64,000 bases of DNA from a phage. The notes under the pieces were generated by a model. It was given only the letters and a program-made list of their open reading frames with translations. It did no database searches and was not told the DNA's origin. Shown here piece by piece: positions 55,613-58,311 of the stretch. The stretch is taken from the sequence record PZ229304.1; one strand, written 5' to 3'. The position numbers were made by a program, and so were the translations under genes. The first letter of the stretch is position 1. Every line of letters starts with the position of its first letter.

Positions 55613-56506
55613 ATGAAAGTTAGTATTCTACATGGTGTTGACTGTTATGTTACTGATGTAGACGTTAAAGTCTTTACATTCTCTGGTGGAGAACAGCATG
55701 TTCAACTAGATACGAATCTATCAGGTTTCAATCATGCTACAGACAGAATCTTACTCACTTTAGAAGTAAGATCTGCTAAAGACTTGATGACTTTGGTTAT
55801 GACTAAGAATGCATTGGACAATATGCTATATCATAAACCATATTGTGTTGATTTGCTCATGTTGTATGTGCCGTATGCACGACAAGACAGAGTGTGTGAG
55901 CCTGGGGAAGCATTCGGAGTTAAAGCCTTTGCTTCTATAATTAATTCATTAAATTTCTCACGTGTTATCGTTGCTGATCCACATAGTGATGTTACGCCAG
56001 CAGTGTTTGACAGACTCTGTGTAATACCTCAAGAAGAGATTGCTTACGAAACTTTAAAGTGGAAGTTACGTATGGAGAATTTTGCTCTTGTTAGTCCTGA
56101 TGGTGGTGCTCTTAAGAAAATATTTAAATTATCTAAGAAAATGTCTTTAGATGTGTTCTGTGCAGAGAAGGTTAGAGATACTGCAACAGGTGCTATTGTT
56201 CGTACAGACATTTCTGTACAGGATTTCAATAAGCGTAACCTGATGATCGTAGATGATATCTGTGATGGTGGTAGAACTTTTATCGAATTGGCTAAAGTGC
56301 TACGTGCTCGTAACGCAGGTAAGATTGAGTTATATGTTACACACGGTATCTTTTCTAAAGGTCTTAAAGAGTTAAGTGAGCACTTTGACTGCATTCATTC
56401 TCTTAATGTGTGGGAAGATAACATCCAAGAAGATTCCGGTGTTCTTGTTAAGAATCAGCCAGATTTGCAACAACAAATTGTATCTCCATACGTGTGGAAT
56501 TTTTAA
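55613..56506 (+). CDS. adps: ribose-phosphate pyrophosphokinase (PRPP synthetase)-like enzyme; candidate ADP-ribose pyrophosphate synthetase (Adps) of NARP1
   Basis: Prs-family motifs PYARQDR, VSPDGGALKK, MIVDDICDGGRTF; directly upstream of Nampt-like gene. Confidence 0.7.
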   Translation: MKVSILHGVDCYVTDVDVKVFTFSGGEQHVQLDTNLSGFNHATDRILLTLEVRSAKDLMTLVMTKNALDNMLYHKPYCVDLLMLYVPYARQDRVCEPGEAFGVKAFASIINSLNFSRVIVADPHSDVTPAVFDRLCVIPQEEIAYETLKWKLRMENFALVSPDGGALKKIFKLSKKMSLDVFCAEKVRDTATGAIVRTDISVQDFNKRNLMIVDDICDGGRTFIELAKVLRARNAGKIELYVTHGIFSKGLKELSEHFDCIHSLNVWEDNIQEDSGVLVKNQPDLQQQIVSPYVWNF

Positions 56507-56514
56507 ATAATAAG

Positions 56515-56545
56515 TGTTGACAATAGGGAGTATGCTTAGTAAGAT
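56515..56545 (+). promoter_or_regulatory. promoter-like TTGACA upstream of the Nampt-like gene
   Basis: TTGACA 56517-56522 with AT-rich -10 region. Confidence 0.35.
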
Positions 56546-56577
56546 ACTCCCACACTAACAAACAAGGAGACATAATT

Positions 56578-58311
56578 ATGAATATTTTTGCACCTTTTGC
56601 TACTGATTGGTATAAACCTGGTCACAAGCAGATGTACAACCAAAATACAAAACTCATTTTCTCTAATTTAACTCCTCGTAATGATAAAAACTTTGCACAC
56701 TATGCAGATCGTGAAGCACGTGGTGTGATTGTTTTAGGTATTCGTCGAGCAGTTACTGATGCTCTTGTAACTATGTGGGATGGCTTCTTTAAAATGTCTC
56801 GTAGTGCAGCAGTAAATAAATTTTATCGTATGTCTAAGAATGCATTAGGTGCTTCTGCTCCTTCTGCTGAATGTTGGGGAGAATTGCACGATTTAGGTTA
56901 TCTTCCGCTAGAAGTTCGATCTCTGCCAGAAGGTGTTTTGTGTCCTATTGGTGTTCCTGTGTTTACTGTGCATAACACTTTAGAAAAATTCTTTTGGTTA
57001 ACTAACTATGTGGAAACACTCTTGTCAGATGAAACTTGGAAGACAATGACTAATGCCACAGCAGCTTTTCAGTATAAGCGTATCGCTATGGCGTATGCGA
57101 TGGCAACGTGTGATAACATTGATCACGTTAATTTCCAGTGTCATGACTTTAGCCTACGTGGTTTAAGCAATATCGAAGATGGTTATAAGAGTGGTATCGC
57201 TCATTTGGCATCTTTCACAGGTACAGATAATATTCTGGCTATTGAAGCTGTGCATGATTACTATGGTATTGATTATGATCAGTTTGTTGCAGGTTCTATT
57301 CCGGCAACAGAACATTCAGTAGCAACGACTAACATTGGAGCTATTGTTGAAGATCTGAAGAAACATTTCCCACATCTTAAAGATGATGTTGATGGGCTTC
57401 GTTATGTAGCAGAGAAAGAGTTTCTTCGCCGCTATATTGAAGAAATTGTTCCAGAAGGTTTTTGTTCATATGTGGCAGATTCTTATGATTACTGGGCTGT
57501 CTTGACTCGCATTCTGGTAGAATTGAAAGAGTCCATTATGTCACGAAATGGTCGTCTTGTTATTCGTCCAGATTCAGGAGATCCGGTTAAAGTTGTTGCA
57601 GGATACAATGTTGAATCTTTTGATAACTATGAAGACCTTTTAAATAATGGTATTGCTACAGCCACTGAAGTAGTACATTTGGCTGATGTTAATAAGTATT
57701 ACAATGTTCTTCAGGATTGCAGTGTTGCTGATTGTATTGATGAAACTTATGAGATTCCTTATTGTGAAGCAGTAGGTTCTATTCAAATCCTTTGGGAAGT
57801 GTTTGGCGGTACTATCAACCGAAAAGGCTACAAGGTTCTTGATCAACACATCGGTATGATTTATGGTGATTCTATTACTGTTGAACGAGAACACGAGATC
57901 TTACGCCGATTGAAGAAGAAAGGTTTTGCAGCTTCCAATATTGTATTTGGTGTTGGTAGTTATACTTATCAGTTCAATACACGAGATACTTTTGGTTTTG
58001 CTGTTAAAGCAACAGGTAGTATCATCGGTGAACACGAAATTTTGGTAAGTAAAGAGCCTAAAACTGATCCTGGTAAACGCTCTGCAAAAGGTTTTATTAA
58101 GGTTGTTAAGGATACAAATGGCAAACTTTCTCTTGTGGATAATCTTTCTTTTAAAGATATCCAAGATGAAGACAATGAGTTACAAGTTATCTTCAGGGAT
58201 GGTACGGTTATTACACCACAAGTAGAAGGACGTGATGAAACATTTACGGATATCCGCAACCGTGTTGATGTAGAGGTTCTTCGTACTATGGGAACCATCC
58301 AGGTTGACTAA
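56578..58311 (+). CDS. namat: nicotinamide phosphoribosyltransferase (Nampt/NadV)-family enzyme; candidate nicotinamide ADPR transferase (Namat) of NARP1
   Basis: 577 aa; N-terminal TDWYKPGH resembles the Nampt TDSYK..H start; paired with Prs-like gene. Confidence 0.65.
   Translation: MNIFAPFATDWYKPGHKQMYNQNTKLIFSNLTPRNDKNFAHYADREARGVIVLGIRRAVTDALVTMWDGFFKMSRSAAVNKFYRMSKNALGASAPSAECWGELHDLGYLPLEVRSLPEGVLCPIGVPVFTVHNTLEKFFWLTNYVETLLSDETWKTMTNATAAFQYKRIAMAYAMATCDNIDHVNFQCHDFSLRGLSNIEDGYKSGIAHLASFTGTDNILAIEAVHDYYGIDYDQFVAGSIPATEHSVATTNIGAIVEDLKKHFPHLKDDVDGLRYVAEKEFLRRYIEEIVPEGFCSYVADSYDYWAVLTRILVELKESIMSRNGRLVIRPDSGDPVKVVAGYNVESFDNYEDLLNNGIATATEVVHLADVNKYYNVLQDCSVADCIDETYEIPYCEAVGSIQILWEVFGGTINRKGYKVLDQHIGMIYGDSITVEREHEILRRLKKKGFAASNIVFGVGSYTYQFNTRDTFGFAVKATGSIIGEHEILVSKEPKTDPGKRSAKGFIKVVKDTNGKLSLVDNLSFKDIQDEDNELQVIFRDGTVITPQVEGRDETFTDIRNRVDVEVLRTMGTIQVD

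Follow-up and report, generated by a model that had tools for sequence, protein, structure and literature searches.

The window analysed here, a 64,000-nucleotide stretch of phage DNA (sequence record PZ229304.1), carries two adjacent genes, adps and namat, that very probably constitute a NARP1 anti-defence pathway; the phage is a phi92-like (Justusliebigvirus) coliphage. In the proposed mechanism, a NAD+-depleting host defence (SIR2-HerA/Nezha, DSR1/2, type I Thoeris, SEFIR or similar) would split NAD+ into ADP-ribose and nicotinamide; the 297-aa Adps would then transfer pyrophosphate from ATP to the terminal ribose of ADP-ribose, yielding ADPR-PP, and on the 577-aa Namat nicotinamide would displace the pyrophosphate of ADPR-PP to give NAD+ directly, with no need for an NMN adenylyltransferase. 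We infer both reactions and the anti-defence phenotype from homologues to which the window proteins are only about 35–39% identical: the genetics and metabolomics of Bas63 (JohannRWettstein, genes 79-80), the genetically validated NARP1 prototype (Osterman et al., bioRxiv 10.1101/2024.02.11.579819), and the enzymology and crystal structures of the biochemically and structurally validated pair of the Bacillus phage SPbetaL1 (Adps WIT26982, Namat WIT26983; 9W5X/9W5W). The finding is a correct re-identification of a pair that is already known, the phage lineage being included in the discovery paper.

Locus, lineage and gene models

The window belongs to a phi92-like myovirus (Justusliebigvirus), with 98–99% nucleotide identity to phi92-like phages, and the host species of this lineage is E. 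coli. A preliminary description of the sequence had proposed two adjacent rightward genes, the second encoding a 577-aa protein of the Nampt/NadV family; coordinates and lengths are borne out, and PF04095 and PRK09198 both match. In the list of open reading frames the two genes adjoin on the + strand, separated by a 71-bp spacer, each with an AAGGAG located 7–8 nt 5' of its ATG:

55600..55605, + strand: Shine-Dalgarno AAGGAG of adps (sequence; equivalent RBS annotated in the phi92 record)
55613..56506, + strand: adps, predicted ADP-ribose pyrophosphate synthetase, Prs-family, Adps clade, 297 aa (ORF, phrog_619, Adps HMM, phi92 orthologue in Osterman et al. Table S1)
56564..56569, + strand: Shine-Dalgarno AAGGAG of namat (sequence; RBS annotated in phi92)
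56578..58311, + strand: namat, predicted nicotinamide ADP-ribose transferase, Nampt-family, Namat type, 577 aa (ORF, PDB match, AF2 model, phi92 orthologue in Osterman et al. Table S2)

Against phage Nernie (99% identical), codon differences in the two genes comprise 22 synonymous and 4 non-synonymous changes, with 21 of the 26 base changes at third codon positions; judged by these substitutions, purifying selection acts on adps and namat. For phi92 gene 108 the record also gives an internal 'hypothetical tRNA'; it was rejected as an annotation artefact, because it is absent from ARAGORN output and sits within the Namat ORF.

Placement of the Prs-like protein

The first protein does contain the Prs-family motifs earlier read in it (PYARQDR at aa 87, VSPDGGALKK at aa 160 and MIVDDICDGGRTF at aa 211), and matches phrog_619 (E 5e-91, 306 bits) and TIGR01251 (E 3e-34). 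Taken at face value, database names and Pfam/NCBIfam matches for the pair, which read Prs and Nampt, would favour conventional salvage, in which a true PRPP synthetase and a true Nampt make NMN that host NadR/PncC-NadD or an unrecognised phage NMNAT converts to NAD+, along a NARP2-like or KVP40-like route. We consider this very unlikely. The window protein exceeds the cut-off of the Prs model TIGR01251 only marginally (118 against 113 bits), which is a point for salvage, but validated Adps enzymes are equally weak on this model (Bas63 139, SPbetaL1 106), against 423 for E. coli Prs itself, and the window protein falls far below the Prs equivalog models NF002320 (97.9 against a cut-off of 297) and NF002095 (97.4 against 296).

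An Adps HMM was trained on 14 phage Adps whose genes neighbour a namat, none of them sharing more than 39% identity with the window protein. It assigned the window protein 273 bits, with 239 and 213 for the left-out Bas63 and SPbetaL1 enzymes and 131–133 for E. coli Prs. Pairwise, the window protein is 36% identical to Bas63 Adps (137 bits), 35% to SPbetaL1 Adps (82 bits) and 28% to E. coli Prs (72 bits), and mutual similarity between the two validated Adps is itself only 32% (95 bits). The HMM and BLAST comparison proposed in the preliminary description thus came out for Adps over housekeeping Prs, at 273 against 133 bits and 36% against 28% identity. A neighbour-joining tree rooted on E. coli Prs as single Prs outgroup places the window protein inside a clade bracketed by Bas63, SPbetaL1 and FADO Adps. 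[quoted passage not shown]

Two sites in the alignment concern the predicted active centre:

56168..56170, + strand: codon of catalytic Lys186 of Adps (alignment: equivalent to SPbetaL1 K162, Bas63 K190, E. coli Prs K194)
56252..56278, + strand: Adps ribose/phosphate-binding loop DDICDGGRT, aa 214-222 (alignment: identical in Bas63 Adps; E. coli Prs DDMIDTGGT)

In SPbetaL1 Adps, K162A abolishes the pathway in vitro (Osterman et al.). DGGRT occurs in 93 of the 120 closest homologs. Elsewhere in the alignment, DPHSDV stands where Prs has DLHAEQIQGFF and K-V-R-D-T-A-T-G where Prs has DKRRPRANV, and N-terminal and C-terminal Prs segments are absent from the window protein. This replacement of Prs-specific motifs by Adps-type ones argues against salvage, as do two published results: SPbetaL1 Adps yielded no product in a ribose-5-phosphate/PRPP-synthetase assay, and rescue by Bas63 was independent of pncC and nadR (Osterman et al.). 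By these alignments and scores, the 297-aa protein groups with validated Adps enzymes and not with cellular Prs. The literature holds neither an Adps structure nor a sequence signature of Adps substrate specificity; because such a signature is unpublished, the assignment of ADPR over ribose-5-phosphate as preferred substrate rests on clade membership and motif sharing.

Catalytic core, adenine clamp and insertions of Namat

The Nampt-like protein matches PF04095 (E 3e-37), PRK09198 (E 5e-138) and phrog_448 (E 1e-187). Its best PDB sequence matches are SPbetaL1 Namat, 9W5X/9W5W (E 6e-118), with H. ducreyi NadV (2e-100) and mammalian Nampt (3e-48) lower, so that here too the comparison with Namat and Nampt favoured the former. 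Similarity to H. ducreyi NadV (35% identity) is not far under that to SPbetaL1 Namat, and to that extent is in keeping with salvage. The AF2 model (pLDDT 91) has 9W5X as its top fold match, with a target-normalised TM of 0.94. In the alignment the window Namat conserves F191, R194, D217, H246, R330, D332, G460/S461, R469 and D470, whose SPbetaL1 counterparts are F189, R192, D215, the catalytic His, R306, D308, G390/S391, R399' and D400', and all NAM/NMN contact residues are kept. Three elements bear on catalysis and on substrate selectivity:

56680..56694, + strand: Namat selectivity-clamp loop (SCL) core N35-D36-K37-N38-F39 (alignment; Bas63 equivalent S-D-K-W-F)
57562..57585, + strand: Namat catalytic motif IRPDSGDP, aa 329-336 (alignment: R330 = SPbetaL1 R306, D332 = D308)
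57955..57987, + strand: Namat selectivity-clamp helix (SCH) signature GSYTYQFNTRD, aa 460-470 (published consensus; predicted adenine-stacking aromatics Y462 and F466)

Substitutions R306G and R306A abolish activity of SPbetaL1 Namat (Osterman et al.). The published SCH consensus is GS-X-Phi1-X-Phi2-X-Phi3-TRD with an aromatic X at positions 3 and 7 (Osterman et al.), and both aromatics are present in 115 of the 120 closest homologs. At the positions of Y462 and F466, H. ducreyi NadV aligns Q and R and mouse Nampt A and K; the clamp aromatics that NadV and Nampt lack therefore weigh against salvage. In the SCL, the adenine-stacking residue is either an Arg at loop position 3 or the residue following a Lys or Tyr there (Osterman et al.). 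Position 3 is Lys37, as in Bas63, and the next residue, Asn38, aligns with Bas63 W43, reported to stack on adenine (Osterman et al.), while F39 aligns with Bas63 F44. K37 and F39 are at least 90% conserved among 40 homologs, and F39 may stand in for W43 in adenine stacking. Namat enzymes keep PRPP-to-NMN activity in vitro (Osterman et al.), a further point in favour of salvage, and by analogy some Nampt-like flux from PRPP to NMN may pass through the window Namat alongside the predicted NARP1 reaction.

Relative to SPbetaL1 Namat, the window protein has two ordered insertions, one helical with a length of about 30 aa, the other alpha/beta with a length of about 57 aa:

57334..57426, + strand: Namat insertion 1, aa ~253-283 (alignments; within two AF2-predicted helices, 246-263 and 271-290)
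57604..57774, + strand: Namat insertion 2, aa 343-399 (alignments; AF2-predicted small alpha/beta sub-domain, pLDDT about 90)

An 867-aa protein, P0214, was also considered as a candidate Adps-Namat fusion and rejected: BLAST shows no Adps part, and the protein is a Namat homolog interrupted between the IRPD and SGDP of the catalytic motif by an intein-like insert.

Neighbourhood and selective role

A Pfam scan of ten flanking ORFs found no Macro (Adpp) or RyR-domain (RyDEP, PF02026) gene, and across the window region the annotation of the relative lists neither of these nor an NMNAT gene. Nmnat, NadR and NadM are likewise absent from the annotation of the relative's window-covering region, where many genes are 'hypothetical'. 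The salvage route finds little here: Nmnat was not seen in the region, nor does it occur in any NARP1 phage of the census by Osterman et al., which contains no phage with both NARP1 and NARP2 and classes the phi92 protein as 'Adps-associated'.

The window also encodes a CobB-like sirtuin (Sir2; 20105-20917) with intact NAD+-binding and catalytic motifs, about 35 kb from adps and namat and on the opposite strand. On bacterial chromosomes, homologous Adps-Namat pairs adjoin the regulator NrtR.

These two observations give some ground for a reading that accepts NARP1 chemistry and makes its main selective role metabolic: ADP-ribose and nicotinamide released by the phage sirtuin or by host NAD+ consumers would be recycled, to maintain the NAD+ supply of a large phage that runs its own nucleotide metabolism. 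The chromosomal pairs beside NrtR imply a housekeeping use, as also argued in PMC11724313. We give this account little credence as the main role. In Bas63, ADPR-PP appeared only with a defence system present, and the phenotype of operon deletion was specific to SIR2-HerA cells (Osterman et al.); sirtuins, moreover, release O-acyl-ADPR and not free ADPR, and the distance and opposite orientation of the Sir2 gene also speak against it. A metabolic role is compatible with an anti-defence one, and the two are not exclusive.

A more elaborate version of the NARP1 anti-defence reading can be drawn, in which the insertions of long-form Namat enzymes from Gram-negative phages, together with the K-N-F loop, provide an extra function that the short form lacks, such as transiently docking Adps to channel hydrolysis-prone ADPR-PP or altering substrate gating, and in which the pathway, with the CobB-like sirtuin, would also recycle NAD+ breakdown products made by the phage. 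We offer it as an unlikely proposal, its support being the presence of these features.

Promoters and leader

Three sigma-70-like promoter candidates were found by pattern match:

55336..55364, + strand: distal candidate upstream of adps, TTGACA-N17-TACCCT, weak -10
55545..55573, + strand: proximal candidate for adps, TTGACT-N17-TAGAGT, ending 39 nt before the ATG
56517..56545, + strand: candidate for namat in the 71-bp intergenic spacer, TTGACA-N17-TAAGAT, 10/12 matches

Each gene had been credited with its own TTGACA promoter; this stands for namat, whereas the site nearest adps is TTGACT and the true TTGACA lies at 55336, where function is uncertain because the -10 hexamer TACCCT is poor. 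A local 3.8-kb scan returned 14 promoter-like sites against 13.0 expected, no excess over chance. Window-wide, TTGACW-N17-TANNNT occurs 25 times against 2.8 expected (about nine-fold, with 0 of 100 shuffles reaching 25), the matches are oriented with genes and transcription, and the exact namat motif is found four times against 0.01 expected. This enrichment and gene-matched orientation make the sites credible as host-type promoters. These patterns suggest that host-type sigma-70 promoters drive both adps and namat, which open a rightward transcription block, an arrangement that fits early expression. An Rfam search for riboswitches and structured leaders, covering the 408-bp divergent intergenic region and positions 54800-59100, had no match at E<=1, and the predicted folding of the adps leader does not surpass that of shuffled sequences (z = +1.0).

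Prior knowledge and significance

Tables S1 and S2 of Osterman et al. include phi92 (gp107/gp108), arall, VEcB and the BASEL phages JohannJBalmer and PaulScherrer, entered as 'Namat within 10 genes: Yes' and, for Namat, as 'Adps-associated'; the proteins of these five phages are near-identical orthologues of the window proteins. The NARP1 operon 'recurred in four' BASEL phages (Osterman et al.), and BASEL Bas60-62 are phi92-like. The suggestion that the locus would be a strong candidate if unannotated is therefore half right: GenBank keeps the names ribose-phosphate pyrophosphokinase and nicotinamide phosphoribosyltransferase, but the literature already catalogues the pair as NARP1. Residual value for the field is modest. 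Nonetheless, in the collection searched a validated anti-defence gene class still goes under the ordinary names 'Prs' and 'Nampt' in 57 near-identical genomes, and such mislabelling matters for host-range prediction and for the choice of therapeutic phi92-like phages against strains with NAD+-depleting defences. The phi92-like phages (BASEL Bas60-62) also offer a tractable E. coli system in which NARP1 is catalogued and Namat is a long form with a slightly different clamp loop.

Comparison with known systems

The recognition, in the preliminary description, of the published NARP1 architecture (a Prs homolog beside a Nampt homolog) is supported, with Adps-clade placement, K186, adjacency, Namat core and clamp helix all in agreement. 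Published variants share the Adps and Namat core with the window: NARP1-AP adds the Macro-domain phosphatase Adpp and RyDEP-carrying NARP1 a RyR-domain cADPR glycosidase, whereas the window pair has no Macro or RyR gene between or beside its members, and by published logic its phage would stay sensitive to aRES-type depletion yielding ADPR-1''-phosphate. NARP2 of Vibrio phage KVP40 (Nampt and Nmnat) and cellular NadV/Nampt (H. ducreyi NadV, PDB 9KE8) have the same Nampt fold and catalytic core as the window Namat, which has both clamp aromatics where NadV (GAQTYQRNTRD) and Nampt (GSGGALLQKLTRD) have neither. For KVP40 Nampt, PRPP is the preferred substrate, and the partner of NARP2 Nampts is Nmnat and not a Prs-like gene (Osterman et al.); the window Nampt-family gene, unlike those of NARP2, has a Prs-like partner.

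Similar by description is NrsA/NrsB of Vibrio phage ICP1, in which an Adps-like gene adjoins a Namat-like one. ICP1 is a Gram-negative lytic myovirus differing from the window phage in host and lineage; the NrsA/NrsB pair is interpreted as NARP1 and regenerates NAD+ against Nezha (bioRxiv 10.1101/2024.06.17.599363). The SPbetaL1 pair shares with the window the catalytic Adps Lys (K162/K186), the same Namat contacts to NAM, NMN and the AMP phosphate, including R306/R330, and a two-aromatic clamp helix. It differs in its 491-aa Namat, which lacks both insertions, in a clamp loop that uses Arg40 directly where the window has Lys37, in its Adps loop (DDLSSFGGT against DDICDGGRT) and in its overlapping genes, which form one operon where those of the window are spaced by 71 bp.

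Bas63 differs in phage family (Felixounavirus against Justusliebigvirus), and identity to the window proteins is only 36% for Adps and 39% for Namat. Its spacer is 45 bp where the window has 71 bp and a promoter-like site for each gene; its stacking Trp43 is replaced by Asn38, and insertion 1 is longer and insertion 2 shorter in the window Namat than their Bas63 counterparts. Common to both, nevertheless, are an E. coli host, adps followed by namat on one strand, an identical Adps loop DDICDGGRT, a long-form Namat (593 aa in Bas63, 577 aa in the window) with insertions at the same two places, and a Lys-type clamp loop combined with an aromatic clamp helix (GSYTYQYMTRD in Bas63, GSYTYQFNTRD in the window).

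The predicted adps-namat locus

The window comes from a phi92-like myovirus; over the 3 kb around the gene pair, 56 phage records match it at 98-99% identity, among them phiWec187, Nernie, phi92 and VEcB (genus Justusliebigvirus). Both rightward ORFs of the preliminary description were found at the positions given there:

55613-56506, + strand: adps, 297 aa
56578-58311, + strand: namat, 577 aa

An AAGGAG ribosome-binding site precedes each, and the two are real genes under purifying selection, since comparison with Nernie yields 22 synonymous codon changes across both ORFs and just 4 that are non-synonymous; antisense ORFs listed inside them are without support. 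A rightward block begins with the pair, past a 408-bp divergent intergenic region, and continues with small ORFs and 16 tRNA genes. Between and beside the two genes there is neither a Macro-domain (Adpp) nor a RyR-domain (RyDEP) gene, and no Nmnat or NadR is annotated in the relative across the window; the locus corresponds to the minimal two-gene NARP1.

Several features of the surroundings merit record. The tRNA array (59058-62200, +; three tRNA-Met, two Leu and two Ser among its genes) begins ~750 bp 3' of namat. Directly 3' of namat, 58383-58604 (+) encodes a 73-aa Cys-rich protein (CRACN...CSICT; weak RecR zinc-finger match, E 0.004), whose TTGACT-N17-TAAGAT site (58304-58332) overlaps the namat stop. 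The phi92 RefSeq and ENA records place a 151-nt 'hypothetical tRNA' in gene 108 (window ~57170-57320, inside namat; 2071-2221 of comparison locus L008), where ARAGORN detects none; the annotation is probably an artefact. Some 2 kb upstream of adps, the 113-aa product of 53237-53578 (-) contains a 'cyclic-phosphate processing receiver' domain (PF20274 cREC_REC, E 2e-14); this gene and its neighbours to ~50.8 kb (phosphoesterase, RNA ligase and ATPase in a relative's annotation) look like an RNA-repair cluster. Records of 'Campylobacter phage' (MG065639, MG065645, MG065656 and others; host C. jejuni) share 98.8% identity with the coliphage region, and are probably mislabelled or contaminant genomes in a public collection.

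Prior cataloguing

The operon drew the notice of Osterman et al. since it 'recurred in four' phages of the BASEL collection, in which Bas60-62 belong to the phi92-like group and Bas63 alone is a Felixounavirus. Their Table S1 gives 'Namat within 10 genes: Yes' for phi92 FR775895_00103, arall, VEcB, JohannJBalmer and PaulScherrer, and their Table S2 labels phi92 FR775895_00104 and its relatives 'Adps-associated'; the locus is thus already catalogued as NARP1 and does not constitute a new finding. Their census includes no phage with NARP1 and NARP2 together. The proviso under which the pair had been proposed as a strong candidate, that it be unannotated, holds for GenBank, where products are still named 'ribose-phosphate pyrophosphokinase' and 'nicotinamide phosphoribosyl transferase', and fails for the literature, in which we found no test of NARP1 in any phi92-like phage.

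Adps or Prs?

The Prs-family motifs of the preliminary description lie at aa 87, 160 and 211 of the 297-aa protein. Conventional salvage by Prs and Nampt would fit the GenBank product names and generic libraries, whose assignment of this protein to Prs is weak: it scores 118 bits with TIGR01251 (cut-off 113), in the range of the validated Adps enzymes (Bas63 139, SPbetaL1 106) and far from E. coli Prs (423), and every Prs equivalog model scores 3- to 10-fold under cut-off. By BLAST the protein is closer to the validated Adps of Bas63 (36%, 137 bits) and SPbetaL1 (35%, 82 bits), themselves only 32% identical, than to E. coli Prs (28%, 72 bits). An HMM agrees; it was trained on 14 Prs-like phage proteins that Osterman Table S1 marks 'Namat within 10 genes', none of them more than 39% identical to the window protein.

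Adps HMM scores (Bas63 and SPbetaL1 left out of training)
Window protein: 273 bits
Bas63 Adps: 239 bits
SPbetaL1 Adps: 213 bits
E. coli Prs: 131-133 bits

Neighbour joining, with E. coli Prs as root and sole outgroup (a limitation of the tree), places the protein within a clade bracketed by Bas63, SPbetaL1 and FADO Adps. Its K186 corresponds to the catalytic lysine K162 of SPbetaL1, the residue that Osterman et al. mutated. It has DPHSDV where Prs has DLHAEQIQGFF, K-V-R-D-T-A-T-G for DKRRPRANV, and DDICDGGRT, identical in Bas63, where the Prs ribose-5-phosphate loop reads DDMIDTGGT; N- and C-terminal Prs segments are absent. As the literature holds no structural signature of Adps specificity, substrate choice is drawn from clade membership. 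Conventional salvage is very improbable.

An operon of Adps-like, Namat-like and NrtR-type Nudix regulator genes occurs on the Geminocystis sp. NIES-3708 chromosome (AP014815.1; comparison locus L006, 5001-8191). Its Adps-like protein is 45% identical to the window protein; its 492-aa Namat-like protein carries GSYTYQYVTRD and the clamp loop TPRSSR. NrtR is an ADPR-responsive regulator, and the operon has the look of a bacterial NARP1, possibly under regulation by ADPR.

Namat or Nampt?

The second gene does encode a 577-aa Nampt-family protein, and in the PDB its best sequence matches are 9W5X/9W5W (E 6e-118), SPbetaL1 Namat with nicotinamide and NAD+ (NAR 2026), ahead of 9KE8 (2e-100), the genuine Nampt NadV of Haemophilus ducreyi, and mammalian Nampt (3e-48). 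A confident AlphaFold2 model built on a 40-sequence alignment (pLDDT 91, pTM 0.90) likewise matches 9W5X best (target-normalised TM 0.94). All SPbetaL1 contacts to nicotinamide, NMN and AMP-phosphate are kept, including H246 and R330, the latter equivalent to R306, whose mutation abolishes activity.

Clamp helix (residues at positions 3/7)
Window Namat: GSYTYQFNTRD (Y462, F466)
SPbetaL1 Namat: GSFTYQYNTRD (F, Y)
Bas63 Namat: GSYTYQYMTRD (Y, Y)
H. ducreyi NadV: GAQTYQRNTRD (Q, R)
Mouse Nampt: GSGGALLQKLTRD (aligned positions A, K)

Both aromatics are present in 115 of the 120 closest database homologs. The clamp loop, judged from sequence, is the sole soft spot of the assignment: it is Lys-type (K37), like Bas63, and Phe39 and K37 are each at least 90% conserved, with Asn38 between them where Bas63 has W43, said to stack. 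In one metagenomic Namat homolog (P0214, 867 aa) the catalytic motif is split as IRPD|SGDP by an intein-like insert of ~290 aa, with Cys first and ...CGN last, then Ser.

Proposed pathway

Clade placement, catalytic residues and clamp helix support the NARP1 reading first proposed. By homology, Adps would pyrophosphorylate ADP-ribose with ATP to ADPR-PP, which Namat would join to nicotinamide, yielding NAD+; NMN and host NadR/PncC would be bypassed, and defences whose cleavage of NAD+ releases ADPR and nicotinamide thereby countered. Such counter-defence by NAD+ regeneration is very probably the function of the pair; there is a slim chance that its role is primarily metabolic recycling, which would be compatible with an anti-defence role.

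The same phage carries, besides this NAD+-rebuilding pathway, an NAD+-consuming CobB-like sirtuin (20105-20917, -, 270 aa; PF02146 SIR2, E 3e-22; best PDB match E. coli CobB 1S5P, E 7e-18), with GAGLSADSGIRTFR, TNVD and HVHG motifs intact and the usual zinc-binding cysteines seemingly absent.

Promoters and comparison with the prototypes

Each gene had been credited with its own TTGACA promoter, which pattern matching upholds for namat; for adps the nearest site is TTGACT:

55336, + strand: TTGACA further upstream of adps, poor -10 hexamer
55545-55573, + strand: promoter-like site of adps, TTGACT-N17-TAGAGT
56517-56545, + strand: promoter-like site of namat, TTGACA-N17-TAAGAT

A local scan gave 14 sites against 13.0 expected, not above chance. 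Window-wide, TTGACW-N17-TANNNT occurs 25 times (985, 1819, 2284 ... 56517, 58304) against 2.8 expected, a count reached in 0 of 100 shuffles, and exact TTGACW-N17-TAAGAT 4 times against 0.01. The strand of the 25 tracks gene direction (mostly + before ~20 kb, mostly - from ~20 to 55 kb, + after 55.3 kb), its switches coinciding with sign changes of GC skew. We accept the adps and namat sites as putative host-type promoters, on which the phage appears to rely heavily.

These separate promoter-like sites, with a 71-bp spacer, distinguish the window genes from the tight operon of the prototypes. The long-form Namat of the window has two ordered insertions more than that of SPbetaL1: one, at aa ~253-283, falls in two predicted helices, and the other, at aa 343-399, is a predicted small alpha/beta unit. 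Bas63 Namat has insertions at the same two places, of different lengths. The clamp loop, K-N-F, differs from both prototypes.
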